From: Nitrospirota bacterium
GTDB taxonomy: Bacteria > Nitrospirota > UBA9217
Assembly: GCA_963749655.1 (NCBI GenBank)
Contig: CAVVOB010000030.1
Coordinates: forward strand, 64,001-128,000
Direction of reading: 5' to 3'
DNA length: 64,000 nt
A program made the position numbers and the translations under genes. How positions within the stretch are numbered: position 1 is the stretch's first letter; the number at the start of each line of letters is the position of its first letter. Of the stretch, positions 34,672 through 52,074 are shown in pieces. The notes under the pieces were generated by a model. That model did not search any database. It had not been told where the DNA came from and saw only the letters and a list, made by a program, of their open reading frames with translations.

Positions 34672-36165
34672 CTACTGGGCAGGCGTCGACTTTTTCTGGG
34701 GAAGCCGGTCGGTTCCCGTGGGAAGCTCTATCGTGAACGATGCGCCTCCGTCCTCGGCGGCGTCGAGGCGGATTGCGCCGCCGTGTTCGGTGACGATACC
34801 GTGGGCGATGGAAAGACCGAGGCCGGTGCCGATGCCGACCGGTTTTGTCGTGAAGAAGGGATCGAAGATCTTTGCCGCCACCTTCTGCGGTATGCCGGGT
34901 CCGTTGTCGCTCACCTTGATCACGACCCGCCGGCTTGCCTTGTCGAAGCGGGTGACGAACCGGATCCTGCCTTTGGTCTGGCCGCCGTCCACGATCGCCT
35001 GCTCGGCGTTCAAGAGCAGGTTCAGGACGACCTGCTGGATTTGCTGGGCGTCCACGAAAACCGTAGAAACGGGATCGTATTCCCGCACGATCTGGATGTT
35101 GTTGGACTTGAGCCAGTAGCTTCTGAGGTCGATGGCGCGGTCGATGATGTCGTTGATGGTCTCCAGGCTCTTCGAGGGCGTGCGCTGCCGCGAGAAGGTC
35201 AGGAGGTTGTCGACGATCTTCTTGCACCGCTCGGCGCTGTCCAGGATCTTCTTGAGCTCGGCCTTCACGGCCTCGTCGGTCACTTTCATGCTGAGGAGTT
35301 CGGTGTACGCGATGGTGCCCGTGAGGGGGTTGTTGATCTCGTGGGCGACGCCCGATACGAGCAGGCCGATCGACGCAAGCTTGTCTGCGTGGTACAGCTG
35401 GTCTTTCAGCCGCCTGACCTCGGTGATGTTCTTCATGACATGGATCGTCAGGGGGCGGCTGTCCTCGCGGAGCGGGAAGATGCTGATCTGGAAGATTTCG
35501 TCGCCGATCTTTTTCTCGTAGATCCGGGGAGCGCCGCTGTCCAGTACGTCCTTCATCGTCGCGGCGCTGGGAAGCTCGAGGTCGAAGACGTCGCTCAGCC
35601 GGTTGCCGACGATTTCCCGCGGATGCTTCCCGATGGAAGCGGCAAAGGAATGGTTCACCTTGATCAGGATCTGGTCGTGGTCCAGAACGAAGATATAGTC
35701 CGTGATGGCGTCGATGATGGACATCCACTGTTTCTGGCTGTGCAGGATCGCCCGGGACCGCTCGGCGTTCTCGTGGGCGGCCTCGAACCGCGTTATGACC
35801 TGCTCGGCAACAAGCGGGTAGATGTCGACCGCGTCGGAGGAGATGCATTCGAACGCCCCGTCGCGGAGCGCCTGGAGCACGATGTCACTGCGTATCTGCT
35901 CGGTCATCATGACCACCGGAGCCGAATGCTGGGCAGATTCGAGGCGCGCCATGATCTCAAAGGCATCCATGCCGCAGCGCGCATGATCGAAGAACACCGC
36001 ATCCACGGTCTCCTGCTTGACGACCTCGATGCCAGCTTCGGGAGTGGACGCAAACAGCAGCCGGGTTCCTGCTGCGGACCGCGCAAAGGCCGCGCTGATC
36101 CGCGCGCGCCGATCGTCGCCGGAAGCGATGAAAAGGATCCTATGTTCAATCCTTCTTGGCGACAA
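34672..36165 (-). CDS. REC-PAS-histidine kinase (NtrB-like)
   Basis: N-terminal receiver, PAS, GVAHEINNPL, NLLLNAEQA, DNGPG, FFTTK..GTGLGL; RBS AGGAGG before TTG. Confidence 0.9.
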   Translation of the reverse strand: MSPRRIEHRILFIASGDDRRARISAAFARSAAGTRLLFASTPEAGIEVVKQETVDAVFFDHARCGMDAFEIMARLESAQHSAPVVMMTEQIRSDIVLQALRDGAFECISSDAVDIYPLVAEQVITRFEAAHENAERSRAILHSQKQWMSIIDAITDYIFVLDHDQILIKVNHSFAASIGKHPREIVGNRLSDVFDLELPSAATMKDVLDSGAPRIYEKKIGDEIFQISIFPLREDSRPLTIHVMKNITEVRRLKDQLYHADKLASIGLLVSGVAHEINNPLTGTIAYTELLSMKVTDEAVKAELKKILDSAERCKKIVDNLLTFSRQRTPSKSLETINDIIDRAIDLRSYWLKSNNIQIVREYDPVSTVFVDAQQIQQVVLNLLLNAEQAIVDGGQTKGRIRFVTRFDKASRRVVIKVSDNGPGIPQKVAAKIFDPFFTTKPVGIGTGLGLSIAHGIVTEHGGAIRLDAAEDGGASFTIELPTGTDRLPQKKSTPAQ

Positions 36166-36603
36166 AAAGAATATCTATCCTCCTGTTTGAGGTCCACCGA
36201 GCCGCTCCCGAAAAAAAACCGTCGCCCAGGGACGTCACTACGCCCCGCTGGTCGCGGCTGATGGCGTTCCCTTTCAGTATAGCAAATTTCGTGAAAGCCC
36301 CCCTGACTTCCTTCTCCGGCGCAACACCGGCATAATCGGGCGTCGTCGGTCCGACGATGACCGGCATGGCGAAGGAGTCCGTTTTCGCCGCCTTAACGCC
36401 GTGTTCACGGTCCGAAGAAGCGTTCGAGCTTCCCCAGGTCCACGCTCCCGTTGCGCTAAATAGTCATGCCCAAAAATTCAGCCCGCCGTCTTATGCTATA
36501 ATGGAAGAGTTTGAACAAATTTCGCCGTGATTGCGGGGCAATCGCGGTCGCGGCAATTCAGCTGTCAGCTGAAAACCGTGCCGGGCAATTCGAGGCCAGC
36601 TTC

Positions 36604-37689
36604 ATGAACGCCATTCCCATCAGACAGACCGGGCAGCTGCTGTCGCTGTTCACGAACGGCACGGAGACGCTGCCGCTCGCAGCGGGCGAGATCGTGACCG
36701 CCGAAGTGCTGGGAACGGGCGCGGGCAATGTCGCCACGGTCAGGCTGAAGAACGCGGTGCTCGACGTGCAGACCGACGTTTCCCTCCGGAAGGGCGACCT
36801 TCTCACGCTGCGCGTCGAGAAGCAGGAGAACGCGGTCTACCTGCGGCTTACCGGCAGCGCGGACCAGTCCGCTTCGGTCAGGAATGCGGCGCTCTCGGCG
36901 CTTGCCGGGTTCGAGAAGCTCAAGCCTGCGACAGAGTCGATTACGGAGCTCGTCAGCCTTCTCTCCCGGCTTCCCGAGGGGCTCAGGGAGAACCTTCCCG
37001 AAATCGACGTCATCAGCTCGTTCCTGCTGCAGATCGACCGTCTCTCGGGCAAGACCTTGAAGGGCATGGTCGAGAACGGCGGCGTATTTTTCGAGAGCAA
37101 GCTCCGCATCCTGGCCTATGGGCTTGAGGCCGACGGCATGACCGCTGATATCGAGGCAGGCCGCATCATTGCCGGCGACCTCAAGGCCGCGCTCCTGCGT
37201 CTCAAGGACACGCTGCTCTCGCCGTCGGTGCTCGAGAGCCTCTCGACGCGGGTCAGCACCGGCGATCTCCTGTCCGCGCTGAACGCCGTCCTGCGGAACA
37301 TCGAATATTGCCAGCTCCAGTCGAAACTCACCGATTCCCTCCATTTTTTCCTGCCGCTCGTCTGGCAGCAGCTGAAGGACGGTGAAATCATCATGCGGGA
37401 GTACGATCACGGCAAGCAGGGTGAGCGGTCCTATGCCTGCACGGTTTCACTCGATCTCGAACGCGCCGGCAAGGTCCGCGTGGACATGCTTTTCCAGGGC
37501 GGCTACATTCACGTGACCTGCGCGGCCGAGAACAGTGGTTTTTCGCAGATCCTTCAGGACGGCGCACAAGCGCTCGAAGGGCAGTTTAAGGCGTCGGGGA
37601 TCAGGCTTGGCCATCTCTCCGTTCGGCACGAGCCGGGACTGGACCTTCGCAAGGAATATAAGGGTGGGGGATTAAGCATCAGGGCGTGA
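36604..37689 (+). CDS. FliK-like (hook-length control) protein
   Basis: ENGGVFFESKL, DLKAALL, C-terminal LDLERAGKVRV; adjacent to FlhB-cytoplasmic-like gene. Confidence 0.65.
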   Translation: MNAIPIRQTGQLLSLFTNGTETLPLAAGEIVTAEVLGTGAGNVATVRLKNAVLDVQTDVSLRKGDLLTLRVEKQENAVYLRLTGSADQSASVRNAALSALAGFEKLKPATESITELVSLLSRLPEGLRENLPEIDVISSFLLQIDRLSGKTLKGMVENGGVFFESKLRILAYGLEADGMTADIEAGRIIAGDLKAALLRLKDTLLSPSVLESLSTRVSTGDLLSALNAVLRNIEYCQLQSKLTDSLHFFLPLVWQQLKDGEIIMREYDHGKQGERSYACTVSLDLERAGKVRVDMLFQGGYIHVTCAAENSGFSQILQDGAQALEGQFKASGIRLGHLSVRHEPGLDLRKEYKGGGLSIRA

Positions 37690-38270: not shown

Positions 38271-40422
38271 TCAGAAGGGAACAGCGTGCTTTGATTTCGC
38301 GTCGAGGATCCGCCTCACCACGGACAGCAGGTTGTAGGATTCGAAAGGCTTCTGCAGAAATCCGTCGATGTCCTTGATGTCCTCTTTTTCCGCCACATAC
38401 TTCGTGTAGCCCGAAACTGCAAGCACCTTTACTTCCGGATGGATCGCCTTCACCTGTCGGATCAGCTCCTTCCCGTCCAGGCGCGGCATGACGATGTCCG
38501 TGATGAGCAGCGCCGTTTCGTGGAAAATCCTCCGGTAGATGTCCAGGGCCACGGTGGGATCGCTGGTCGCGAACACCTTGTAGCCGTGGCTTTCCAGCGC
38601 CTCCCGCATGATGTCCAGAATGTCTTCCTCGTCGTCGACCACCAGGAGCGTTTCCTTTCCCATGGTCGGCGCGATGCGGGCTTCCGCCATGATCGCTGCG
38701 GAGGGTGAGGCCGGAAGGTAGACCGTGAAGATGCTTCCGGTGCCGACCGTGCTCTGGACGGCGAGAAATCCCTGGTGGTCCTTGACGGCTCCGTAGACCA
38801 TGGAAAGTCCGAGCCCCGTGCCCTTCCCCTGTTCCTTGGTCGTGAAGAACGGCTCGAAGATCTTGCTCACGATCTCCTGGGGTATTCCCGCAGCCGGTGT
38901 CCGTGACGCTCAGTATCACGTATTCTCCCGGCGGCACATAGGGCGGAACGTTCGGCATCTTTCTGACGACCGTCTTCGCCTCGGTCTTGATGGAGATGCG
39001 GCCGCCGGTGGGCATGGCGTCGCGGGAGTTGACGATGAAGTTCATGATGACCTGCTCCATCTGGTTCGCATCGCCCTGGATCAGCGGGAGGCGGTTGTCC
39101 AGCTCGACGGTCATGCTGATCTTCTTGTCGATGACCTGTTCCAGCAGCTTCACCGTGTCGTAAACCACGTCGTTCAGATTGAGCGGAGTCAGCTCGTATT
39201 TGCTCTTTCGGGAGAAGCCCAGCAGCTTGGAGATCATCCGTCCGGCCCTTCGGGACGCGTCCTCGATGACGCCGATGCTGCGCAGGGAGCGGTCGTCGAG
39301 CGTCGAGGATTTCCGTACGATGGCCGCGTGCCCGAGGATGGCGGTGAGGATGTTGTTGAAGTCGTGGGCGATGCCGCCGGCCAGGACGCCGATGGACTCC
39401 ATTTTCTGGGACTGGAACAGGTGCTCCTGGAACTTCTTCTTTTCCGTGATATCGCGGTAGAACGACTGGATATAGGTCGCATCGCCGATGGTGACGGCCT
39501 TGGCGCTGATTTCGAAGTGAACGGAGGACCCGTCGCGTTTGTTGTGGCGGGCTTCAAACACCAGCGATTCGCCGTCCAGGATCCGGCGCATCCGTTCGGC
39601 CATCTTGTCCCGGTCGCCGGCGTCCTCCAGCAGCCTGATGTGGGTGCCGATGAGCGTTTCCCGCGTGAAGCCGTGCATCTCGCAGGCCCGCTCATTTGCG
39701 TTCACGATGATGCTGCTCCTGTCGAGGACGATGATGCCGTCGGTCGCGTTCTCGAACAGCGCCCGGTGCCACTGCTCCGACTCGTGCAGCTCCTTCGTCC
39801 GCTCCTCGACCATGCTTTTGAGCTGCGAGGAGTAGGCCTCGAGCTGCAGCTTGTCCTGGGAGAGGTCGTACTCCAGGGAGAGGTTCTGCACGTACAGTTT
39901 ATAATTCACGTACCGCCACAGGAGGCCTCCGCCTATGGTGGCCGCGAGAAATACGCTGTTATTGATGAAAATGCTCGGATTGGTGATCGTATCGAGCGCC
40001 AAAATGGGAATTACGTAAATGGCATAGATTATTCCCGCCAGCACAAGCGACAACCGCAGGGAAATGGGGAGCAGCCCGAAGAGAAAGACATACACGATCA
40101 TCAAACCCGCATAGTAGGGGGACTGATGGCCGCCGAAGGAGAGAATCATCAATTCGACCATCGTTGAGATCGCTATCGTGGCCGCAACAATAATGACGTT
40201 GAAAACGGGGATTTTCTTGTAGAGAAAATACAAGCCGATGTAAACTGCGGAGGTGGCCACCCGATAGAGAATGAACCGCTTGAAATTTTCGGGCGTGACG
40301 AAGTAATCCAGGAAGCCGAGCATCAAGATGCCCAGCGTGGCGAAGAGCAGGAGCTTTTCAAAGAAAAGACGCGACGCATCCTGCAGATGCTGCTGGATAT
40401 AGCGTTCTTTATCGGAGCTCAT
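38271..40422 (-). CDS. Hybrid sensor kinase: multi-TM (PhcS-like) input + PAS + HisKA/HATPase + REC; frameshift near 38880
   Basis: ~6 TMs with [30 protein letters not shown] | [15 protein letters not shown], receiver LVVDDE..ITD..KPF. Confidence 0.88.
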
Positions 40423-40439
40423 CGTAGCGCTACTTTAGC

Positions 40440-41855
40440 CTACTTTTTCCCTTTAATCAAGATCATCTTTGCCGTACCGTAGCCGACGTATGCGGTACCG
40501 GAAATCCCGAGGCCCAGGGTTGTCCAGTGCCCGGCCAGGTACAGCCCGCCGATGAAAAGCGGTTTGCGCATGCTGGGCACGGCCAGCTGCTCCGGCATAG
40601 CTGCCCATCCCAGCGAAGCGCCTTCATAATTCAGCGTGTATCGGAACAGGGTCTGCGGAGTGGCTGCATCGCGGCAGACGATATGCTTCGATAAGCCGGG
40701 GACCGCGCGCTTTTCGATGACGTCGATGAACGCTTCCCGCCAGGCGGCCTTGTTCTCTTTCCAGAAAGCCGCGTTCTTAAAAGGCGCGAGGATAAGGGCC
40801 GTCAGTGTCGAGGCATCGCGGCCGATCCGCAGCGCGATCCCGCTGAAACTCCCCTGGTCCCGGGTCCGCATATCGTGAAACATTTTTTCGATGTCGTAAT
40901 GCTCGGAGAAAAAGAAAAACGTCCCCGGCGTGCAGGGGGGCGTAAAAGCCTCATCGAGGCCCAGGTATACGATGAAATTGGACATCGAAGGCGTCATGCC
41001 TTCCAGTCCGGCGCGGAAATCCCGGTCGACGCAGGCGCCGTCCAGGAGCTCGAGAAAGGTCTGCCTGGCATCGCAGTCCGATATCACCTGTCGCGCCTGC
41101 ACGAAGCCGGCGGTGTCGAGCGTGACGCCGCTGACAGCCGCGTCACGCACGGTGATTTTTGTCGCGGTTGTCGACAGCCGCAGGTCTCCGCCCAGTTCCC
41201 TGAACCGTTCCGCAAGAACGTCGGACAGGGCCTGCATTCCGCCTTCCGGGTAATAGCCGCCGTCGAAGAGGAATTCGGAATACAATTTGGCGCCGACAAA
41301 TGCGGATATCATGGACGGCGGGAGCGCCCCGATTCCCAGGAAAGGCAGGGACAGGAGCGCCTTCAACTTCTCATCGTTGAAATACAGGTCCAGCAATGCC
41401 TTGAAGGTCAGGCGTCTTAATTTGGCGAAGGAGGAGGGGTGGGAATCCCTCAAGAGGTTGAAAAAATCCCCGAGCCGCGTTCTCTCGGAAGGAAATGCCG
41501 CCTGAAATTCATCGACCGTCCTCGCATAATCGTTCCAGAATGAAACCGAGTAATCCGGGGTGTTGATCACGTCCGAGGGATCCGGTCGTGTAATCCGCAA
41601 CCGCCGGTCGACGCCGATTTCCTGAAGGATCTTCCTCATCATTCCTTCCTGCCGGTAGGACCCGAAGCAGTGAGGGGCGGCATCGAAAAGGAATCCGTTT
41701 CTTCTGAAGGAAGTGCAATAGCCGCCCGGTTTATGATGCCGTTCCGCGATCATCACCTTCATCCCGGCTTTTGCGAGAAAGCAGCCGCAGACCAGGCCGC
41801 CGATGCCGGCGCCGATGACGACGGCATCGTAGGGGGGCTGGTCAGTTTTTCCCAT
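40440..41855 (-). CDS. Phytoene-desaturase (CrtI)-like FAD oxidoreductase
   Basis: GAGIGG, PGGYCTSF.R.GF.FD, YYP.GG, ATP.T..RYT.N..GA, GLYLAGHW. Confidence 0.85.
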   Translation of the reverse strand: MGKTDQPPYDAVVIGAGIGGLVCGCFLAKAGMKVMIAERHHKPGGYCTSFRRNGFLFDAAPHCFGSYRQEGMMRKILQEIGVDRRLRITRPDPSDVINTPDYSVSFWNDYARTVDEFQAAFPSERTRLGDFFNLLRDSHPSSFAKLRRLTFKALLDLYFNDEKLKALLSLPFLGIGALPPSMISAFVGAKLYSEFLFDGGYYPEGGMQALSDVLAERFRELGGDLRLSTTATKITVRDAAVSGVTLDTAGFVQARQVISDCDARQTFLELLDGACVDRDFRAGLEGMTPSMSNFIVYLGLDEAFTPPCTPGTFFFFSEHYDIEKMFHDMRTRDQGSFSGIALRIGRDASTLTALILAPFKNAAFWKENKAAWREAFIDVIEKRAVPGLSKHIVCRDAATPQTLFRYTLNYEGASLGWAAMPEQLAVPSMRKPLFIGGLYLAGHWTTLGLGISGTAYVGYGTAKMILIKGKK

Positions 41856-42105
41856 GAGCGGACCTTTCGGTCAGCAGCCTGTTGACCAGCGTGACCGCCT
41901 GGTTCACGGTCGTTATTTTCGGAACATCCTCATCCCTGACCGAGAGTTTGAACTTCTTTTCGAGCGCTACCGTGATTTCGATGGCCTTGATGGAATCTAT
42001 TTCCAGGTCCTCGAAAAAATGAGTGTCCGGTTTTATCTCGGCTTCGTCGAATCCCGAGATGTCCGCAATGATGGAAATGATCTGCTGCTCAATGGGGTCA
42101 GACAT
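41842..42105 (-). CDS. Acyl carrier protein
   Basis: DLEIDSI (Ser attachment site), acidic, 87 aa. Confidence 0.92.
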   Translation of the reverse strand: MSDPIEQQIISIIADISGFDEAEIKPDTHFFEDLEIDSIKAIEITVALEKKFKLSVRDEDVPKITTVNQAVTLVNRLLTERSAHGKN

Positions 42106-42124
42106 GGTTCTCCGCAATCCTTTC

Positions 42125-43354
42125 TTAATCGGGGATGAACTTTTTTATGGCCAGCGAGGCATTGTTGCCGCCGAAGGCGTAGGAATTGTTGAGTGCGCAG
42201 TCGACCGTATGGCTTCGCGACGCGTTCGGCACGCAGTCGATATCGCATTCCGGGTCGGGCGTCTCGAAGTTCATGGTCGGCGGCACGACATCGTGCGTGA
42301 CCGCGAGGGCGCAGGCGATCGCTTCAAGCGCCGAAGCCGCTCCCATGGCATGGCCGAGCATGGACTTGATCGAACTGACGGGGATCGCGCGCAGCCGGTC
42401 GCCGAACACGATCCGCATGGCAGCGCACTCGGCGCGGTCGTTCGTTGCCGTACCCGTGCCGTGGGCGCTGATATAATCTACGTCGTCCCCGCTGATTCCC
42501 GATTCCTTCATCGCCTTTCGCATGCACCCGGCTATTCCCTCGACAGAGGCGTTCGTCATATGGTGGGCGTCGCAGCTCAGGCCGTAACCCGCTATTTCAG
42601 CGTAGATCGGAGCTCCCCGTTCGAGCGCGCTCCCGAGAGATTCCAGGACGAGGAAACCGGCCCCCTCGGCCACCATCATACCTTTTCTGTTCTTGTCAAA
42701 AGGCCGGCATTTTTCCGGCGCCACGGCGGAGAACTGGTTGAAACCCGTGAAGGAGATGCGGGAAAAGGCATCCGATGCGCCGGCCAGCACGATATCCGCC
42801 CTGCCGAGCCGGATAAGATCATAACCGTATCCGATGGCGTAGTTGCCTGCAGCGCAGGCCGTGGAAAACATGACGTTCGGGCCGGTGAGCCGCAGCTCCC
42901 GGGCGATGATTGCCGGCGTTGTGTGCGTAGGCAGCTGGCCGATCAGCTCACGAGCCACGCGGCCTTTGTTCAGAAGGATATCGTCGATCCTCTCTATTGA
43001 CTGGATCGAGCCGGTCGTGGTGCCGCAGCAGGTTCCCGCTGTTGCTCCGGCGAGCTCTTCCGGCGACAAGGAGGCATCCTTTACCGCAAGAACAGCCGCT
43101 GCAAGGGCCATCTGGGTCGCCCGGCTGAGCGAAGCCAGGCGGTCGCGGGCAATGAAGTCCTCGGGTCTGAAATCCTTCACTTCACCGCCGAAATGGGTGA
43201 AGTAGGCGGAGGTATCGAACGACGATACCTCGCTGATGCCGGATTTTCCCCGGAGGAGGCCGGTCCAGAATTCATCCTTGCCGATGCCGAGGGAGGAAAT
43301 GACCCCGAGGCCGGTAATGACCACGCGCTGGTTATGTGGCGCCGTCTCTTTCAT
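42125..43354 (-). CDS. Beta-ketoacyl-ACP synthase (FabF-like, active KS)
   Basis: STACAAG, HGTGT..ND, KSMLGH, AFGG.N. Confidence 0.93.
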   Translation of the reverse strand: MKETAPHNQRVVITGLGVISSLGIGKDEFWTGLLRGKSGISEVSSFDTSAYFTHFGGEVKDFRPEDFIARDRLASLSRATQMALAAAVLAVKDASLSPEELAGATAGTCCGTTTGSIQSIERIDDILLNKGRVARELIGQLPTHTTPAIIARELRLTGPNVMFSTACAAGNYAIGYGYDLIRLGRADIVLAGASDAFSRISFTGFNQFSAVAPEKCRPFDKNRKGMMVAEGAGFLVLESLGSALERGAPIYAEIAGYGLSCDAHHMTNASVEGIAGCMRKAMKESGISGDDVDYISAHGTGTATNDRAECAAMRIVFGDRLRAIPVSSIKSMLGHAMGAASALEAIACALAVTHDVVPPTMNFETPDPECDIDCVPNASRSHTVDCALNNSYAFGGNNASLAIKKFIPD

Positions 43355-43412
43355 CGTTCCTGTGCCGTGACCGTCCTGCGAGCGACGCCGTGACATGCCG
43401 GTTGAACCGTCG

Positions 43413-44270
43413 TCAGCGTTTTTTGCATAAAAACCGTGCGTACTTGAGAAAGTCGTAATGGGTTTCGATCATGACCCTGAAGTAGCGGAGCGATTTGCTG
43501 AAATACTCTTCAGGCGCCGCCTTCAGATAAACGCGGGACATCTGCAGTTCCCGCAGGCGGGCGCGGAGACCGCGGTCGACGATGTCGGTCGTATCTTCTG
43601 CGAGCAGGACGTCGAAACCCGCCTCTTCCAGGAGCGCCCGGGTCTCGGCAATCGTATTCTGGAACCAGACCCCGTCGGCATAGGTGCCGGGAAAGTCGCC
43701 TCCCGCCCTGGTGAGGTCGCCTTTATCGCCCCGCGTCCAGTCGTGGAAACCCATGATGCCGTTCTTTTTCAGCACCCTCCGGAGCCCTGCAAGCGCGGTC
43801 TTCTTGTCGCTCCAGTGGCAGATGGTTTCATTGTGAAATATCCGGTCGAACGATTCATCGGAAAAGTCGACGCCATGAACGTCCTTCACGAGCCGTTCCG
43901 TCAGGCCGTCCACCCCTTCGAGGCGGTCGCAGGCTTTCGCTTTTTCTATCTGCACAGGGTTGATGTCGAAACCGACGATCCTGCACCGGAACATTTTTGC
44001 GATCAACCGTGTGGGGGCGCCGTTGCCGCATCCCGCGTCCAGGACGACGTGCTGCGGCGATATCTCCATCATCCGGAGCAGCTTCTCCACCTCATGCTGC
44101 AAGTGGTGGGACATGCTTTCCGTGTCGAAGATCCTCCTGTCCAGACTTCCGGGGTCGACGCCGAAGGCCTGATACAGCCGGCGCAGTTCTTCCGCCGAAT
44201 ACACCGGGAACCCGATGTTATGGGAGTAGCTTCGGATGATGTTCCCTACTACCTTGTCTTCAATCCCCAT
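43413..44270 (-). CDS. Class I SAM-dependent methyltransferase
   Basis: VLDAGCGNG, GFDIN, SFDRI. Confidence 0.85.
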   Translation of the reverse strand: MGIEDKVVGNIIRSYSHNIGFPVYSAEELRRLYQAFGVDPGSLDRRIFDTESMSHHLQHEVEKLLRMMEISPQHVVLDAGCGNGAPTRLIAKMFRCRIVGFDINPVQIEKAKACDRLEGVDGLTERLVKDVHGVDFSDESFDRIFHNETICHWSDKKTALAGLRRVLKKNGIMGFHDWTRGDKGDLTRAGGDFPGTYADGVWFQNTIAETRALLEEAGFDVLLAEDTTDIVDRGLRARLRELQMSRVYLKAAPEEYFSKSLRYFRVMIETHYDFLKYARFLCKKR

Positions 44271-44721
44271 CAGCGCGCTCCGGCCCCTCGTGTTCCTTGA
44301 CGCTGAACACCAGCTCCGCCTCCGCAATTTTTTCCCCGTCGACGAAAGCCTCGCCCGAGACAAAGGCGCCCGTCGGAAGGGTCTTTACGTTTTCGATCCG
44401 GATCCTCAGCTGATCTCCCGGCACTGCCGGTTGGAGAAACCGCGCCTTGACCGAGCCGAAGTAATAGAGCGGTTTGGGTCCGCTGCGCGTCTGGGCCACG
44501 GCAAAAAGGACGATCGCCGTCTGCGCCATGGCCTCCAGAATGAGCGCCCCCGGCAGGATGGCCTTCCCGGGAAAGTGTCCCTGGAAGACCATGTCGTTGC
44601 CCGAAACGTTCTTTATTGCCACCGCGAACTTTCCCGGCTCGACCTCGAGCACCCGGTCGATCATGATAAAGGGAAAGCGCTGCGGTATGAGTTTCTGGAT
44701 CTCTTCGAAATCAAGCTGCAT
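44260..44721 (-). CDS. 3-hydroxyacyl-ACP dehydratase (FabZ-like)
   Basis: PQRFPFIMIDRV, GHFPG..ILPG.LILEAMAQ. Confidence 0.92.
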   Translation of the reverse strand: MQLDFEEIQKLIPQRFPFIMIDRVLEVEPGKFAVAIKNVSGNDMVFQGHFPGKAILPGALILEAMAQTAIVLFAVAQTRSGPKPLYYFGSVKARFLQPAVPGDQLRIRIENVKTLPTGAFVSGEAFVDGEKIAEAELVFSVKEHEGPERADGD

Positions 44722-44732
44722 CGCCACCCGTC

Positions 44733-45959
44733 CTATCGGCCCACGATCACGGCCGAATTCTGGCCGTAGGGATCCGCAGAGGTCACCAGCACGTTTCTGA
44801 TTTTTTTCTCCCGTGCAGGGCCGGACACGACGTCGAGGTCGCACAGGGAGTCTTGTTCACGATAGTTCGCAACCGGCGGGACCACTCCCTCGTGGACCAT
44901 ACCCGCAGCCGCAGCCAGCGCGAGGGCGCCCGAAGCGGAGAAGGATTCTCCGATCATGGACTTGATCGCCGTTGCAGGTATCCCGGAAGCGCGGTCGCCG
45001 AAGAGGTCCCTGAGAACGGCCGCTTCCATGCGGTCGAGCCCGGGCGTCGAATTGGCAGAGCAGCAAAGGCAGTCGATGTCCGCGGGGCCGAGCGCGGCTT
45101 CACGGAGCGCCTGGGAGACGGCCCGGTGCAGGCCCTCCCCCTTGTGGCTGAAGTCGGCCTCTGCGGAAGGGTCGAAGGAATTGCCGCAGCCCAGGACGCG
45201 GGCGAGAATGTCGGCTCCCCTGCGGAGGGCGTACGCTTCTCTTTCGAGCACCAGGACGGCGGCGCCCTCGGACAGGACCATCCCGTTCCTCCTCGCGTCG
45301 AAGGGGCAGCAGAGCGGCGCGGTCCCGTCCAGGCCCGACAGCCACCGGAGCTCGTGAAAAAGCCGGAAGGTGTCCTCGCAGAGCTCTTCGACTCCTCCAG
45401 CGAGCACCACGTCGGCCCTGCCGAGGTTTATGAAATCCGACGCATACGCCACCGCGTCCAGGCCGGCGCAGAAACCCGTGGAGACGGTGCTGCTGAAGCC
45501 CCTGATCTTGAACCGGATCGATACCTGGCTGGCCGGTGAGTTGATGACCGTATTGGGAAAGTGCGAGGGATTGACGAATCGCGGCCCGTCCACGAGGCTG
45601 GAGCGGTCGAACCGGGCGATGCTGTCGAGGCTTCCGAAGGTTGTCCCGATGGAGACCCCTATTGAGCCGGTGTTGTCTTCCGTGATTGCGACCCGGCTGT
45701 CGTCCACAGCGAGCCGGGCGGCCGAGCAGAGCAGCCGGGTGCTCCGGTCGAGGTCGCGGAGCCCCTTTTTCCCCAGAAGCGGCAGCGGATCAAAATCCGT
45801 GATCTCGCCGGCCGTGCTCACGCGAAAGGCCCCGGTGTCGAACAGGGTAATGGGCCGGAACCCTGTTTTCCCCCGGAACAGGCCGTCCCAGTAGGCTGTT
45901 CTGCCTGCTGCAATGGGGGAGAGGACCCCGACGCCGGTTATGGCAATCCCCGTTCTCAT
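44733..45959 (-). CDS. Inactive KS homolog / chain-length-factor-like subunit
   Basis: KS fold, but STGFCAG, SANST and KSMIGE replace STACAAG, HGTGT and KSMLGH. Confidence 0.8.
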   Translation of the reverse strand: MRTGIAITGVGVLSPIAAGRTAYWDGLFRGKTGFRPITLFDTGAFRVSTAGEITDFDPLPLLGKKGLRDLDRSTRLLCSAARLAVDDSRVAITEDNTGSIGVSIGTTFGSLDSIARFDRSSLVDGPRFVNPSHFPNTVINSPASQVSIRFKIRGFSSTVSTGFCAGLDAVAYASDFINLGRADVVLAGGVEELCEDTFRLFHELRWLSGLDGTAPLCCPFDARRNGMVLSEGAAVLVLEREAYALRRGADILARVLGCGNSFDPSAEADFSHKGEGLHRAVSQALREAALGPADIDCLCCSANSTPGLDRMEAAVLRDLFGDRASGIPATAIKSMIGESFSASGALALAAAAGMVHEGVVPPVANYREQDSLCDLDVVSGPAREKKIRNVLVTSADPYGQNSAVIVGR

Positions 45960-45966
45960 GGCCGAA

Positions 45967-46719
45967 TTATATTCCCATTCCCCCGTCGAGCTGCACGGTC
46001 TGGCCGGTTATATACCCTGCGTCGTCGCTCAGCAGAAAAAGCACTGCCTGCGCCACTTCTTCGGCAGTGCCGAACCTTCGGAGCGGGATCATGTCCAGGA
46101 ACTTTTCCCTGCTCTTCCCGCCGAGCTCGTGCGTCATCTCGGTCTCGACAAAACCGGGCGCGACCGCGTTTACCCGGACATTATAAGGGGCCGCTTCGCG
46201 CGCCAGCGCTTTGGTGAAGCCGATCACGCCGGCCTTGGCCGCGGCGTAATTGACCTGCCCGGGCAGGGGGTGAATGCCGCTTACCGAGGCGATGTTCACG
46301 ATGCTTCCGCTCTTTTGCTTGAGCAGGGTAATGATGCACGCCCGCGTGGTGTTGAAGACCCCCGTGAGGTTCGTATCGATCACGTCGGACCATTCTTCCG
46401 CAGTCATCATCATGAGCGACCGGTCGCGCGTGATCCCGGCATTGTTGACCAGGGCGTCGAGTCTGCCGAACCTGCTTTTCACGTCTTCGACAAGGGCCTT
46501 TGCGCCCTCGAGGTCCCGCACATCAAGCTGAAAAGGGAGCGCTTGTCTGCCGGTCCCGGCGATCTCCTGTGACAACGCAGCCGCCGAGGCGCTGTCCCGG
46601 ACATAGGTGAAGGCGCAGTCGGCGCCGGCACCGCAGATCGCGCGCACAACGGCGCGCCCGATGCCCCGCGTCCCGCCGGTCACGAGCGCAACCTTGTTGG
46701 AAAGTGTCTTGTGCTCCAG
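45967..46719 (-). CDS. 3-oxoacyl-ACP reductase (FabG-like); probable CTG start
   Basis: ALVTGGTRGIG, NNAGITRD, YAAAK, VAPGF; AGGAGG 5 nt upstream of CTG 46719. Confidence 0.92.
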   Translation of the reverse strand: MEHKTLSNKVALVTGGTRGIGRAVVRAICGAGADCAFTYVRDSASAAALSQEIAGTGRQALPFQLDVRDLEGAKALVEDVKSRFGRLDALVNNAGITRDRSLMMMTAEEWSDVIDTNLTGVFNTTRACIITLLKQKSGSIVNIASVSGIHPLPGQVNYAAAKAGVIGFTKALAREAAPYNVRVNAVAPGFVETEMTHELGGKSREKFLDMIPLRRFGTAEEVAQAVLFLLSDDAGYITGQTVQLDGGMGI

Positions 46720-46825
46720 GATCGCCTCCTCGCCCTCGGCGGGCTCCCCGCTCTATGAAGCAGCGAATCTCACTATATCATTATCCGCTTTCCGTTACAA
46801 GACGAAGGATGAGCGTCGCCGCGCT

Positions 46826-47878
46826 TCACTTCTTCGTCGCGGTGTAGAAGACGATCGAGCCGGAATCGACGCGGCTCATGGACAGCGCAGAGTCCGGAAT
46901 GCCCGCCTGGCGAAGCAGCCTGACGAAATCCTTTTCCTTGCGCTGAAGGAAGCCGTCCCAGTCCACGAGCCAGTGGAATATCTCGGCGCGGTAACGGTCC
47001 GCATCCTTGAACGCGGCGATGAGCTTGCCGCCGTCGTTCAGCATCCCGTAGAGCGAGGACAGCAGTTTTACGAGAAAATCGTCGGGCAGATAGTCGAAAA
47101 AGCCGATGCTGTATATGACGTCCTGTTTGCCGAATTCCGCCTGCGCCGTCTCGTGGTCGAACATCCGGAGCGCGTTGTACTGCCGCACATCAGCCTGGTC
47201 CGCGGTGAGTCCGGCGTAGGTCAGCCGGTCGAGGGAAAAATCGAGGGCCTCGGGGTCCAGGTCCACGCAGGTGAACTTTGCGCCCGAGGTTTTGATGTCC
47301 TGGGCCAGCTCGAAGACTTCCCTGCACGAGCCGCAGGCGATGTCGAGCACCTTCAGATCGCGGCGCCCGAGCAGCTCGTTTTTCAGGAGGTCGCGCAGTG
47401 TGGCGACGCGTTCCCGCACACCCACGCCCAGGGCCGTGGTGAGCAGATACTTATCGAGATAGTAGCCGATGCCGCTGGACATCGGCATGTTCTTGTACGC
47501 CAACTCCAGGGTCATGAAGTCCCCCTGCTGTCCGTTGGGCCAGGTCCTGGTCCGGTTGATGCAGTAGCTTTTGGAAAGCATCGGGTGCGTTCTGTCGCGA
47601 AAGGAGACCTGGGCGTTCTTCACGCTCAGCGGGTCGTCCATTTCCCGTTCTACCTGCGCGCACGCTTCAAGCATGGAATCGGTGAGGACCGTCACTTCGT
47701 CGAGGATTGCCTCGCGGTCGGTTCCGGGCCGCAAACACCGTGATTCGCAGTCCTTCAGTTGTTCCAGATACTGATCGATCTTCTCGTTAAACCGCTCCAC
47801 ATACGTCGCCGGCCTGTCCTGAACCAGGCCGGAATGCTCCAGAACTGCCTCTCTGTGATAGGTTAATACGTTCTGCAT
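46826..47878 (-). CDS. PhcB-like class I SAM methyltransferase (fatty-acid methyl ester signal synthase family)
   Basis: WP.G..GDF..LE, VLDIACGSCRE, DLDPEAL, IYSIGFFDYL.D, L.DGG.L, VDW...R. Confidence 0.7.
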   Translation of the reverse strand: MQNVLTYHREAVLEHSGLVQDRPATYVERFNEKIDQYLEQLKDCESRCLRPGTDREAILDEVTVLTDSMLEACAQVEREMDDPLSVKNAQVSFRDRTHPMLSKSYCINRTRTWPNGQQGDFMTLELAYKNMPMSSGIGYYLDKYLLTTALGVGVRERVATLRDLLKNELLGRRDLKVLDIACGSCREVFELAQDIKTSGAKFTCVDLDPEALDFSLDRLTYAGLTADQADVRQYNALRMFDHETAQAEFGKQDVIYSIGFFDYLPDDFLVKLLSSLYGMLNDGGKLIAAFKDADRYRAEIFHWLVDWDGFLQRKEKDFVRLLRQAGIPDSALSMSRVDSGSIVFYTATKK

Positions 47879-48222: not shown

Positions 48223-48250
48223 ATTATACATAAGTACTGTTTGTTGTAAA
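48223..48250 (-). promoter_or_regulatory. Putative sigma70 promoter for the phcB-like/FAS operon
   Basis: Minus strand TTTACA-16-TATAAT in AT-rich DNA. Confidence 0.45.
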
Positions 48251-48507: not shown

Positions 48508-49038
48508 CTATTTTCTTTTGTAGAGGCCCATCAGCTCTGCCTGCGCCAGGATGTGGCCCTTCATCGCCTTTTCGAGGGCCGCCTTCGAAGCTCCCTGATC
48601 GAGCGACGGCGCAGCATCGAGTGCGTAGAGCTTGAAGAAGTACCGGTGCGTGCCCGACGGAGGGCAGGGGCCGCCATAGGCTTTTCTCCTGAAGTCGGTC
48701 ATGCCCTGCAATGCGCCTGCCGGGGCCGAGTTCTCCCCGATCTCCTTCGTGGCGGGGCTGATGTTCCAGACCACCCAGTGCACCCACGTCCCTGCAGGAG
48801 CGTCGGGATCGTCGACGATCAGGGCGAGGGATTTTGTTCCAGCCGGTACGTCTCCGATCGTGAGCGGCGGATTTATATCCGAACCGTCGCAGGTATATTT
48901 TGCAGGGATGCTGCCGCCGGGAGTAAATGCCGGGCTTGATAACGTCAGCGTGCTCATAGGACCAGCCTCCATGTTCGCGAAGGAAAGAGCAATGGCTGCA
49001 ACAATGAACAGGACCGAGTCTTTTTGTCCGCTACCCAT
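48508..49038 (-). CDS. YbhB/YbcL (PEBP/RKIP) family protein
   Basis: YTCDG...PPL, DDPDAP.G.WVHW, YGGPCPP.G.HRY.F. Confidence 0.93.
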   Translation of the reverse strand: MGSGQKDSVLFIVAAIALSFANMEAGPMSTLTLSSPAFTPGGSIPAKYTCDGSDINPPLTIGDVPAGTKSLALIVDDPDAPAGTWVHWVVWNISPATKEIGENSAPAGALQGMTDFRRKAYGGPCPPSGTHRYFFKLYALDAAPSLDQGASKAALEKAMKGHILAQAELMGLYKRK

Positions 49039-49109: not shown

Positions 49110-49151
49110 GAAAAAATAGAGGGCAGGCCTGGTCTTCAGACCTGCCCTGCA
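49110..49151 (-). terminator. Terminator after cold-shock gene
   Basis: AGGGCAGGTCTG...CAGGCCTGCCCT stem followed by T-run on minus strand. Confidence 0.75.
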
Positions 49152-49166
49152 GCGGAAGGACGGTCC

Positions 49167-49373
49167 TTACGCCGCTTTGGTGACATGTGTTGCCTTGAGC
49201 CCTTTCGGGCTTTCTACAACCTCGAAAGAAACCTCCTCGCCTTCCGCGAGGGTCTTGTACCCGTCGATCTCGATTTCGCTGTAATGCACAAAGACGTCGC
49301 CGCCGCCGTCTTTTTCTATGAATCCAAAGCCCTTGGACTCATTGAACCATTTTACTTTGCCATGTGTTGCCAT
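49167..49373 (-). CDS. Cold-shock protein (CspA family)
   Basis: [22 protein letters not shown]. Confidence 0.96.
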
Positions 49374-49419
49374 ATACCGCGCCTCCTTACTGTCGTGAAG
49401 TCCGGATTGCGAAAACACA

Positions 49420-49451
49420 AAAGCCGCGAAGCTAAAAGTCTTCGCGGCCTT
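49420..49451 (-). promoter_or_regulatory. Strong hairpin + T-tract in csp 5' leader
   Basis: AAGGCCGCGAAG-acttttag-CTTCGCGGCTTT then TGTGTTTT. Confidence 0.55.
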
Positions 49452-49530
49452 TCGTACTGCAAAAAACTTCCGAACCTCTGTATATATGTTGACTCTCAGG
49501 AGGAGAGATGTCAAGAGAGAAGAGAATATT

Positions 49531-49643
49531 TGCCACAGAGTGCAGAGAGGGCACAGAGAAAACGACCATGGACACGATCTTCCCCAGGAGGTCCGGCGTG
49601 GTCGATTTGAACTAAAAACTAAGAACTCAAAACTAAGAACTGC
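49531..49643. repeat. Adjacent nonamer (CACAGAG) and heptamer (AACTNAR) repeat arms
   Basis: gccacagagtgcagagagggcacagag; aactaaa aactaag aactcaa aactaag aact. Confidence 0.65.
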
Positions 49644-49683
49644 CTTAAGGTCTATCCGCAGATGACGAAGAAAATATGATCTC

Positions 49684-49713
49684 TTGACAAGTGAACATGT
49701 GTTCACCTATAAT
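49684..49713 (+). promoter_or_regulatory. Sigma70 promoter with LexA-type operator in the spacer
   Basis: TTGACA-18-TATAAT; GTGAAC-ATGT-GTTCAC (49691-49706) matches GAAC-N4-GTTC. Confidence 0.8.
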
Positions 49714-50738: not shown

Positions 50739-52074
50739 CAGTACTGTCCGGTTGTTACGTAAATAGATTCAATTGGTTATCGTCATGCTGCTCCATTTCA
50801 CGATCTATGGTTTCCTGAACCACTTGAGAAATAGACTTTTTCTCAAACAGGTTCACCTCCAAAATCTGTAGAATTGTGTGGAGACTTCCAGGAAGGTTCA
50901 AACGCTTCTTGACAATCGCCACGAGAAGATAAACGCTGACGGCTGTCCAGATTCTGAATTTTGACCGCGTTGGGCGATGTGCCAAAGAACGATTTGATCC
51001 TCAGGTGTTGCTTGATCCACTTGAAGAATAGCTCCACTTGCCATCGCGACCGATAGATGTCCGCTACAGTCTTCGCTGGCAGAAGGAAGTTGTTTGTAAG
51101 AAACACGAGGCGCTTGTCCCGTTCGATATCGTAATAGCGAACCCGGCGCATGGGATCGGGATAGGCCAATCGAGAATTGAACCCGACGAGCACAACGGTT
51201 TGATCGGCTTGGACTCCGATGGTTTTGTCGACCGGTGCAGAATATATACGACGAAGCCTTTGATTGTGCTTCGTCCGGATCACGAAGTAGGCCGAGAGCT
51301 GATTGATACGATAAAGCCGTTCGAAATCGAGATAGGCGCGGTCCATGGTATAGACCGAATCGGCTTTTATAGGAACGGCATCCATCATATTGACGTCGTG
51401 AACGCTTGCGGGAGTGACGAAAATAAAGGTCGGAATCGACCCCTGGACATTGAGCAGCGTATGGATCTTGACAGCTGCCTTCTTCTTGCGAAACGTGGCC
51501 CATGGGAATGTCGAGAGACACAGATCGATAACCGTTGAGTCCAGGGCATAGATCGCGAGTTTTAGGTCCAGGCCAAGTTCCTCGTTTCGGTAGAGGGAGC
51601 TGGCCTCGTTGATGAGCATGTACCCGAAGTCTTGATAGATTCGAAAGTCGCGAAGCTCGTTGGCATCCGCCAAGGTAGATTTGGCAATCTTGCCTCGGAA
51701 TGCCCATGTGATAGAGCTTCTGGCGATGTGAGTTCAGACACGTTACGATATCGCGCAGGCTTTCTCGATAGGTCAATTGCGCGAATGCCATGCAGAGCAA
51801 CTGATCGAGACATGAAAAGCTCCTGACCTTGTGAGTTGCCCTGATAGCGATTCACGCATTGATTGAACTCGTACCGTCGGCAGATGTTGAATCAGTTGAG
51901 CAAAGACCGTTTTCCCGGAATTCATCCCTGTCCCTCCTCAGGCAGTGTTGAGGGTGGATTATAAGATGAATTCAGAGAAACGAAGTTCAAATCGAAAAGT
52001 TGCATTTTGGCCATTATCTTTTTGTATTACTGTAGGTTATCGCGTTTCAGAAAAACGATAACCGGACACTACTG
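50739..52074 (-). mobile_element. IS4-family element, 15-bp TIRs, 9-bp TSD ATATGTGAT; transposase 51925-50755 with several frameshifts
   Basis: CAGTACTGTCCGGTT / AACCGGACACTACTG; TSD at 50730-50738 and 52075-52083; ALDST, DRAY, Y..RW.VELFFKWIKQ. Confidence 0.93.

Follow-up and report, generated by a model that had tools for sequence, protein, structure and literature searches.

The 64,000-nt window analysed here, taken from a Nitrospirota genome, holds nine minus-strand genes running in one direction (positions 38271-47878): a methyltransferase (MT1), FabG, a chain-length-factor (CLF)-like ketosynthase (KS), FabZ, a second methyltransferase (MT2), an active KS, an acyl carrier protein (ACP), a CrtI-family flavoenzyme and a hybrid histidine kinase. 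ORF and domain analysis bore out the order and placement given in the original prediction, along with the tight packing it described: neighbouring genes overlap by 10, 11 or 14 nt or are separated by 7, 7, 16 or 17 nt, the sole long gap being 142 nt directly after MT1. The shared strand and close spacing suggest that the synthase and kinase genes are co-transcribed. A consensus scan alone located a sigma-70-like promoter candidate (TTTACA-16-TATAAT, 48223..48250, minus strand, 11/12 consensus matches) ~345 nt upstream of MT1, and an Rfam search of the operon leader returned no family. The next gene past the kinase is fliK-like and lies on the opposite strand, with no PhcR/PhcQ-like genes following in the window.

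The genes between MT1 and the kinase, all on the minus strand, combine acyl-chain assembly with putative tailoring functions. FabG (45967..46683) is a 3-oxoacyl-ACP reductase-type ketoreductase scoring 297.1 bits against the TIGR01830 cut-off of 297.75. The active FabF-like KS (42125..43396) has an intact Cys-His-His triad, whereas in the CLF-like partner (44733..45959) Phe replaces the catalytic Cys and both His residues are lost in alignment with the active KS. The pair is far closer to chains B (E 1.7e-137 for the KS) and C (E 1.4e-104 for the CLF-like partner) of PDB 9S5H than to any other solved ketosynthase (6KXD is next for the KS, E 1.4e-102); the two are putative heterodimer partners. 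Domain search and alignment also identified a dedicated ACP with the DSI serine motif (41842..42117) and a FabZ-type 3-hydroxyacyl-ACP dehydratase (44260..44724), which probably starts at Met41 of the long ORF, as relatives align from residue 39-45 on; compared with ordinary FabZ proteins, the anammox enzyme is not a closer match to it. In domain searches, MT2 (43413..44270) was a generic class I SAM methyltransferase and the flavoenzyme (40440..41855) a member of the CrtI/amine-oxidase family, of which residues 61-471 fall in a hypervariable block defined by divergence. The cassette encodes no enoyl reductase, and the domain search found no radical SAM domain in any of the nine proteins. Its ACP, KS, FabG and FabZ are second copies, the housekeeping set (including acpP on contig C24) being located on contigs C24 and C32.

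MT1 (46826..47878, minus strand; 350 aa) carries Pfam class I methyltransferase domains without an N-terminal PilZ-like domain and starts behind a strong ribosome-binding site (GAGGAGG, 7 nt ahead of the ATG). In the accessible text of two reports, Phc quorum sensing in Ralstonia and Cupriavidus comprises phcBSRQ and PhcA, with PhcB making methyl 3-hydroxymyristate or -palmitate and PhcS sensing it (PMC7694676, PMC2864759). We compared MT1 and the kinase directly with phcB-phcS genes fetched from five Ralstonia/Cupriavidus genomes. The methyltransferase profile gave a single strong match in each of the five (E 1e-37 to 1e-43), every time a gene of 463-464 aa with a kinase of 442-486 aa after it; in one genome, REC-HisKA-HATPase and REC genes come next, matching the phcBSRQ layout in the portion of PMC7694676 available to us. 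BLASTP aligned MT1 with the phcB-position gene at 26% identity (E 1e-18), extending into the helical domain ahead of the Rossmann fold, and hhalign gave 98.4% for MT1 versus PhcB and 99.8% for the wider family, compared to 2.6% for MT2, a negative control that is not PhcB-like. The BLASTP alignment and the hhalign alignment with PhcB both contain an R-x-x-T-x-P-x-G-x-x-GD-Y/F segment outside the SAM fold. On these comparisons MT1 groups with PhcB, as had been predicted, and is a specific relative with homology beyond the generic SAM fold. The full PhcB architecture is not present, since MT1 lacks the N-terminal ~130 residues of the approximately 464-aa PhcB. The 120 MT1 homologues among the matches listed are mostly about 350 aa (9 of these 120 carry the JGI automatic name for PhcB), and each of the 24 close homologues that were aligned matches MT1 across its whole length at 59-85% identity. 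More distant relatives are 450-490 aa long, with PilZ.

The final gene (38271..40422, minus strand) encodes a PhcS-like six-helix sensor (residues 1-200) followed by PAS, HisKA, HATPase_c and receiver domains; PhcS has neither PAS nor receiver. No Pfam model covers the membrane sensor domain, and its assignment comes from direct comparison with the PhcS membrane domain: BLASTP aligned the two over 183 residues (E 5e-10, identity about 26%), and hhalign gave 98.9% (E 2e-17) compared to 0.4% or less for reversed and shuffled controls. The multi-TM input had been described as bearing SPYYAGL, which is found at residues 101-107; in the BLASTP alignment an 11-residue kinase segment is matched to DGAESLYYAGL of PhcS, and the two share an S-x-YYAGL motif. 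Judged by sequence, the kinase N-terminus thus falls with PhcS, as anticipated, and its membrane domain is homologous to the PhcS-type polytopic sensor. The domains and motifs of the predicted hybrid kinase, including the HisKA H-box and the acceptor Asp of the receiver, are all present, though split over two frames in this assembly. The frame from 40422 covers TM-PAS-HisKA and the first part of HATPase_c before turning into Arg/Gly-rich nonsense, with the remaining HATPase_c and the receiver in another frame ending at 38271; the shift is one extra base in a GGGAA run (38885-38889) between DTGCG and IPQE, and 38271-47878 are the coordinates of the repaired reading. We found no public contigs bridging this site.

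Association of the two end genes extends well beyond this genome. Among 83 loci fetched by methyltransferase similarity alone and then scored for a downstream kinase, 52 had one, either directly after the methyltransferase (20 loci, the same order as phcB-phcS) or after an acyl cassette (32 loci). The kinase was missing in only three loci with 6 kb or more downstream, so it is syntenic in 52 of the 55 loci with enough sequence to judge, as the original prediction required. In the direct pairs the kinase matches full length at 37-53% identity. Since the gene arrangement recurs in dozens of loci, it is not due to chance. MT2 is an optional part of the cassette, occurring in only 2/32 cassette loci elsewhere (L032 and L047), and gene neighbours past the kinase vary in other loci. 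Most relatives have a PilZ domain at the N-terminal end of the synthase, and REC-HD (HD_5) regulators flank the methyltransferase-kinase pair in four loci (L025, L027, L039 and L059); the window itself has neither PilZ on MT1 nor an adjacent HD-type regulator. A literature search found no paper describing this type of cluster.

In pherotype ("dialect") quorum-sensing loci such as agr and com, the signal-making gene and the receptor's sensor domain diverge together. Our data show the same for the flavoenzyme body and kinase sensor domain, which vary as one block: between close relatives they are 33-55% and 38-50% identical, respectively, compared to 70-77% for the cytoplasmic part of the same kinase. 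Across 22 loci, divergence of the membrane domain correlated with that of the flavoenzyme at r = 0.63 versus r = 0.23 with the kinase's own cytoplasmic half, and the partial correlation between membrane domain and flavoenzyme (0.58) was equalled by none of 2000 permutations. The flavoenzyme gene adjoins the end of the kinase gene that encodes the sensor, and therefore a single recombination tract could produce this co-variation without a functional link.

Taken together, the homology of MT1 to PhcB and of the kinase to PhcS, their conserved pairing, operon-like packing and joint flavoenzyme/sensor divergence form the base for reading the locus as a Phc-type module for making a lipid ester and sensing it at the membrane, enlarged by a private acyl-chain assembly line, an interpretation we hold with somewhat better than even confidence. 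Its product would probably be a new lipid-ester signal that is both made and sensed. We infer each chemical and signalling step as follows. With the private ACP as carrier, the KS/CLF pair, FabG and FabZ would assemble an acyl chain of short or medium length, and this chain probably remains hydroxylated or unsaturated given the lack of an encoded enoyl reductase. The flavoenzyme (and here MT2) may then modify the chain, after which MT1 would methylate the carboxyl group and release a diffusible methyl ester. Within the membrane, this ester would be bound by the six-helix domain of the kinase, which is presumably co-transcribed, with a phosphorelay passing via the kinase's own receiver to a partner encoded elsewhere.

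A rather unlikely alternative casts the locus as a specialised lipid pathway that has its own homeostatic sensor: here the cassette would make an unusual membrane lipid or hydrocarbon, as in anammox and Desulfotalea clusters, MT1 would modify the product, and the kinase would monitor the membrane or an intermediate to regulate the operon without cell-to-cell signalling. The absence of a dedicated exporter within the operon is consistent with this, as is the KS/CLF affinity to 9S5H. In chain C of that structure the positions of Cys163 and His333 are occupied by Val and Glu, the residues given for Kuste3606 in the accessible part of PMC2649909, and entry 9S5I also holds an ACP chain; from these residues and chain contents 9S5H appears to correspond to the amxFabF2/amxFabFmut pair, which the available text of a preprint treats as membrane-lipid enzymes (bioRxiv 10.64898/2026.05.19.726425). 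Such clusters with phytoene-desaturase-like genes were moreover proposed to make polyunsaturated lipids, according to the same portion of PMC2649909. However, 20 loci keep the methyltransferase and kinase alone, indicating that the pair works without the lipid cassette; both end genes are homologous to a proven synthase/receptor pair; and block-wise enzyme/sensor divergence is predicted by signal specificity and unexpected for a sensor of bulk lipid.

PKS-embedded methyltransferase domains work on carrier-bound intermediates, and MT1 resembles such type I domains (one of its best plasmid matches, from Enterobacter, has 30% identity and E 2e-16) and the methyltransferase domain within a 2521-aa frame in another genome (G007); MT1 therefore need not be the releasing step. 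It could act on the ACP-bound chain, either in BioC-like priming (masking the malonyl carboxyl) or as a PKS-type C-/O-methyltransferase, and the product would then be no simple fatty acid methyl ester. A fold search also finds SgvM (alpha-keto C-methyltransferases) and the CurJ C-MT at TM about 0.5, and an anammox FAS-cluster methyltransferase binds its ACP according to the available part of PMC9821293. We consider this improbable, as the specific profile similarity is to the PhcB family, the shared segment lies outside the SAM fold and the enzyme lacks an adjacent private ACP in the 20 direct pairs. It is very improbable that the circuit is dead in the genome studied, with a real kinase frameshift, a product sensed by nobody or a decaying locus. 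The frameshift is present in the assembled sequence and two transposase genes lie 3-6 kb away, but all kinase and receiver motifs are kept in both halves with no other lesion, the shift falls in a GGGAA run, and orthologues are intact (720-727 aa in L004 and L008). A presumably essential gene, the housekeeping fabG of contig C24, is likewise split between two frames, which indicates indel errors in the assembly.

The preferred reading, a variant of the Phc module in an uncultured Nitrospirota bacterium, is suggested by the two Phc-type ends and the acyl line wedged between them. To our knowledge, Ralstonia and Cupriavidus are the only bacteria in which Phc signalling has been described, and there it uses ordinary 3-hydroxy fatty acids. 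Our data suggest that its synthase/receptor logic extends to Nitrospirota and to some genomes of Thermodesulfobacteriota and Aquificota, mostly uncultured groups important in nitrogen, sulfur and subsurface cycles, and that the signal may be custom-built by a private assembly line. The locus offers a concrete, expressible target for a new autoinducer chemotype, and its flavoenzyme and sensor domain a natural experiment on co-evolving signal and receptor specificity. As a tentative extension, which is possible but on balance doubtful, Nitrospirota and neighbouring phyla may hold a family of Phc-like lipid-ester quorum-sensing dialects, in which a swappable CrtI-like flavoenzyme and receptor membrane domain set the ester made and heard, c-di-GMP gates the synthase via PilZ in most members, and the KS/CLF-ACP-FabZ-flavoenzyme core makes small lipids for signalling or specialised lipids. 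The locus is relevant to the view that anammox Cluster I has a core confined to ladderane producers; if the dialect reading is true, the core is a more general cassette.

Several known systems share parts of this arrangement. Rpf/DSF signalling pairs a hybrid kinase, RpfC, with a REC-HD-GYP regulator, RpfG; the Nitrospirota locus resembles it in its putative fatty-acid-type signal, its hybrid kinase and a c-di-GMP link via REC-HD neighbours and PilZ in relatives, but has no RpfF-type crotonase. As in agr and com, close relatives differ far more in an enzyme and receptor-sensor block than in the sequence on either side of it, although those systems use peptides and the variable enzyme here is a flavoenzyme whose putative substrate is a lipid chain. 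Anammox Cluster I (Kuenenia kuste3603-3608) comprises ACP, FabZ, FabF, a non-canonical FabF, a phytoene-desaturase-like protein and a radical SAM protein in the accessible text of PMC4790861 and PMC2649909, with an amxFabF2/amxFabFmut heterodimer described in the available part of bioRxiv 10.64898/2026.05.19.726425. Our locus has the features of this kind of cluster, namely an active KS with a partner lacking Cys-His-His and a dedicated ACP, FabZ and phytoene-desaturase-like (CrtI-like) flavoenzyme; in place of a radical SAM gene it carries a PhcB-like methyltransferase, a generic one and a kinase. The highly reducing type II PKS of ishigamide (Iga11/Iga12, PDB 6KXD) likewise has a KS/CLF heterodimer, ACP, KR and DH without enoyl reductase, but it is more distant than 9S5H and the locus has no amide-forming or aryl-priming genes. 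Departures from the Phc model itself are real: the pair is interrupted by seven genes, MT1 is 350 aa long versus 464 in PhcB, the kinase is frameshifted and has added PAS and receiver domains, the Ralstonia comparator has PhcR (a REC-kinase hybrid) and PhcQ (REC) whereas neither follows the Nitrospirota kinase, the phylum is different, and the acyl substrate would come from a private pathway rather than housekeeping fatty acid synthesis. Yet the two systems share a homologous methyltransferase and polytopic sensor domain, with the synthase gene upstream of the kinase gene and co-oriented with it.

Gene and domain calls recovered all nine co-oriented minus-strand genes of the original prediction at 38271–47878, in a genome of 4.27 Mb (39 contigs, 86.6% completeness, 5.8% contamination); the nearest records to the window are uncultured Nitrospirota. 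The genes encode a 350-aa class I SAM methyltransferase (MT1); FabG, the only SDR of the cluster, which scores as FabG; a ketosynthase homologue (CLF) with Phe in place of the catalytic Cys and both His absent; FabZ; a second class I methyltransferase (MT2); a ketosynthase (KS) with an intact Cys-His-His triad; ACP; a flavoenzyme of the CrtI/amine-oxidase family; and a kinase in which ~6 membrane helices precede PAS, HisKA, HATPase_c and receiver domains. No enoyl reductase is encoded among the cluster genes. The KS, ACP, FabG and FabZ are extra copies: a housekeeping fabG-acpP-fabF set lies on another contig of this genome (C24), and a FabZ gene on a third (C32). Genes overlap by 10–14 nt or are separated by 7–17 nt, the sole exception being 142 nt after MT1. 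A GAGGAGG ribosome-binding site and a promoter-like site (48250–48223, minus strand, consensus score 11/12) precede MT1, and an Rfam scan of the 345-nt leader found no family.

Upstream of MT1, a PEBP-family gene (48508–49038) is conserved in the closest relatives (loci L001, L002, L003 and L009). The cspA thermoregulator RNA model matches weakly at 49117–49300 (24 bits against a gathering score of 78; E 0.006), overlapping the 3' end of a cold-shock-domain gene (49167–49706) and the terminator-like site immediately past it. Two minus-strand transposase genes follow, one (50843–51800; DUF4372 and DDE_Tnp_1) split over two overlapping frames and the other (52329–53822) carrying DUF772 and DDE_Tnp_1_6. 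Just outside the other end of the cluster are a minus-strand REC-PAS-HisKA-HATPase kinase (34672–36165) and a plus-strand hook-length gene resembling fliK (36511–37689), and in other genomes neither is conserved beside the cluster.

MT1 had been proposed as a relative of PhcB, the Ralstonia/Cupriavidus signal synthase. A Ralstonia PCR primer had no match in genome_contigs; Ralstonia/Cupriavidus genomes were identified via a GMI1000 megaplasmid gene, and five of them were searched using a profile built for the wider MT1 family. Every genome had exactly one strong hit (E 1e-37 to 1e-43), a gene of 463–464 aa followed by a kinase gene of 442–486 aa. In R. mannitolilytica, a REC-HisKA-HATPase gene and then a REC gene follow this pair; this gene order is that published for phcB-phcS-phcR-phcQ, and the matched gene agrees in size with PhcB (464–468 aa; PMC7694676, PMC2864759). 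MT1 is 26% identical to the gene at the phcB position (BLASTP, E 1e-18), in an alignment that takes in the helical stretch N-terminal to the SAM fold (INRTRTWPNGQQGDF versus VYRTFTKPLGYAGDY). Profile-profile comparison with PhcB, which bears out the proposed kinship, gave a 98.4% match for MT1's close family (E 1e-14) and 99.8% for the wider family (E 5e-30), whereas MT2, an ordinary methyltransferase used as a negative control, reached 2.6% against the same profile. General resources were less specific: a PDB sequence search with MT1 returned just a weak lysine methyltransferase match (E 0.003), a fold search of a library that holds no PhcB structure returned generic class I methyltransferases (TM ~0.5), Pfam has no family for the N-terminal part, and the name PhcB was absent among ten ~465-aa representatives looked up.

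The kinase N-terminus likewise groups with PhcS, the membrane receptor kinase, as predicted. Residues 1–200 are 26% identical to the PhcS membrane domain over 183 residues (E 5e-10), with an 11-residue stretch aligning to DGAESLYYAGL of PhcS, and a 36-sequence sensor profile matched a 5-sequence PhcS profile at 98.9% (E 2e-17, 195 columns); PhcS profiles reversed or column-shuffled as controls gave at most 0.4%. The motifs behind both assignments in the original prediction were correct, as these direct comparisons show. The sensor domain matches no named Pfam family, and its ESM Atlas neighbours are generic MASE-like domains, nothing more specific. A second PhcS-like kinase, which has no receiver, occurs elsewhere in the genome (C19:92823–97924, equivalent to L010:8823–13924) and is 43% identical over residues 4–506, sensor included. 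Its upstream neighbours are a REC-PilZ protein, a further flavoprotein of the amine-oxidase family and an unassigned ORF of 245 aa; there is no adjacent PhcB-like methyltransferase.

Pairing of the two genes extends well beyond the window. From ~394 relatives in genome_contigs, 80 were taken into a locus set picked by methyltransferase similarity alone, which comprised 83 distinct loci after removal of three duplicates; four frameshifted MAG loci were reassigned manually from their gene chains. Of the 83 loci, 52 have a same-strand kinase downstream of the methyltransferase and 28 stop less than 6 kb past the methyltransferase and are uninformative for the kinase; L062, L070 and L086, each with at least 6 kb downstream, contain no kinase match. 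In 20 loci the kinase follows directly, in the same order as phcB-phcS and with a full-length kinase match (37–53% identity), and in 32 an acyl cassette intervenes. CLF and KS are present in all 32 cassettes, ACP in 31, the flavoenzyme in 27, FabZ in 23, FabG in 15 and MT2 in two. The direct and cassette loci together show the methyltransferase-kinase pair to be the core and the assembly line an optional, variable insert. By record title, hosts of the pair are mostly Nitrospirota and Thermodesulfovibrionia, with some Thermodesulfobacteriota and one Aquificota; Nitrospinota and Planctomycetota records have the methyltransferase alone or are too short. The methyltransferase family occurs in 58 of 201 sampled genomes of the window's phylum and in every sampled genome of its genus (12/12; 14/14 in another count). 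A search of the available literature found no papers placing phc genes in Nitrospirota, Thermodesulfovibrio or Desulfobacterota.

Individual loci vary in further ways. Tandem PhcB-like methyltransferases, the first split into two pieces, precede a single kinase at L083:7298–9488. MT2 occupies the same place (FabZ-MT2-KS) in L032 and L047, where the flavoenzyme is absent; among the loci seen, only the window has both. Right behind the kinase in cassette loci L032, L037, L041, L045 and L047 is a convergent 326-aa ORF on the opposite strand, which is FabH-type (ACP_syn_III) in L032 and was assigned in the other four from equal size only; it may be a housekeeping gene or a cassette primer enzyme.

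More distant methyltransferases (~450–490 aa) carry an N-terminal Pfam PilZ domain in 31 of 34 members, with a consensus that keeps R-x-x-x-R and D-x-S-x-x-G. An HMM of this part matches 37 of the 52 paired loci, and it has been lost in the window's clade. Beside direct pairs with a PilZ-bearing methyltransferase, c-di-GMP-type regulators are found: REC-HD (HD_5) proteins in L025, L027, L039 and L059 and a PAS-GGDEF protein in L075. This arrangement hints that c-di-GMP feeds back on the making of the signal in relatives; a literature search for PhcB with PilZ returned nothing relevant.

Two adjacent segments of the cluster diverge together. In six close relatives, the kinase cytoplasmic part is 70–77% and FabG 75–77% identical to the window; the flavoenzyme body (residues 61–471) is 33–55% and the kinase sensor domain 38–50% identical. 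Across 22 loci with complete data (231 pairs, with the window's proteins as the column reference for all identities, and with non-independence among related loci), sensor identity followed the flavoenzyme (r 0.63) and not the cytoplasmic half of the same kinase (r 0.23). Given the cytoplasmic half and KS, the sensor/flavoenzyme partial r was 0.58 (reached in 0/2000 permutations), versus 0.31 for the CLF/flavoenzyme control (63/2000). For the methyltransferase, identity goes with the kinase core (r 0.86) rather than with the sensor. At the extreme, L003 and L009 are 96% identical in the kinase core and 83% in CLF, and 37% in the flavoenzyme and 36% in the sensor. Such co-divergence has the form expected of a signal-specificity block; since the two segments adjoin on the DNA, a single recombination tract could also explain it. 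GC3 of the block is slightly lower than that of its flanks (0.74 versus 0.75–0.89), and we claim no foreign origin from composition.

We regard a Phc-type circuit with a signal custom-built on a private ACP as the best reading, and as somewhat probable; its homology, pairing, packing and co-divergence are observed, and each chemical or signalling step is an inference. An acyl chain would be assembled on the private ACP and modified by the flavoenzyme (plus MT2 in the window); MT1 would then free it as a methyl ester, to be sensed by the hybrid kinase through its PhcS-like domain. A specialised lipid pathway accompanied by a homeostatic kinase is a possible but rather unlikely alternative. Some MT1 relatives are embedded in type I PKS, as would be expected if MT1 worked on carrier-bound intermediates instead of releasing the product, an option we consider improbable.

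The predicted hybrid kinase stands in its domains and multi-helix membrane input but not as one open frame: a single additional base within the run GGGAA (38885–38889) breaks the gene, with all kinase and receiver motifs kept across the two frames. The housekeeping fabG beside acpP and fabF (C24:163767–164472) is also split between two frames, which suggests indel errors in the assembly and makes such an error the likelier cause of the kinase split. No public contig from the three runs searched spans the site (short pieces only), and none of the five listed sequencing runs is recorded as RNA. That the kinase is genuinely broken here, which would be compatible with the other readings, seems improbable as well.

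The circuit we favour would draw on enzymes whose closest solved relatives are chains of PDB 9S5H: chain B for KS (E 1.7e-137) and chain C for CLF (E 1.4e-104). Other solved ketosynthases are far more distant, the next being the ishigamide KS/CLF entry 6KXD (E 1.4e-102); a KS structure prediction based on six sequences had low confidence (pLDDT 41). Chain C has Val and Glu at the Cys163 and His333 positions, as does Kuste3606 (Rattray et al., PMC2649909), and the sister entry 9S5I includes an ACP chain. From these residues and the chain content, we infer that both entries represent the amxFabF2/amxFabFmut heterodimer of anammox bacteria described in a 2026 preprint (bioRxiv 10.64898/2026.05.19.726425); neither code appears in its text or in the other papers searched. 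Crosslinking assays in that preprint reportedly show a preference for C6–C8 substrates, the only ground on which we guess that the chain made by the window cassette is short or of medium length. Kuenenia kuste3603–3608 encodes ACP, FabZ, FabF, a non-canonical FabF, a phytoene-desaturase-like protein and a radical SAM protein (PMC4790861), whereas the window cluster is without the radical SAM gene. The anammox cluster is termed unique to ladderane producers in the preprint; comparable clusters have been described in Desulfotalea, Geobacter and Pelobacter (PMC2649909).
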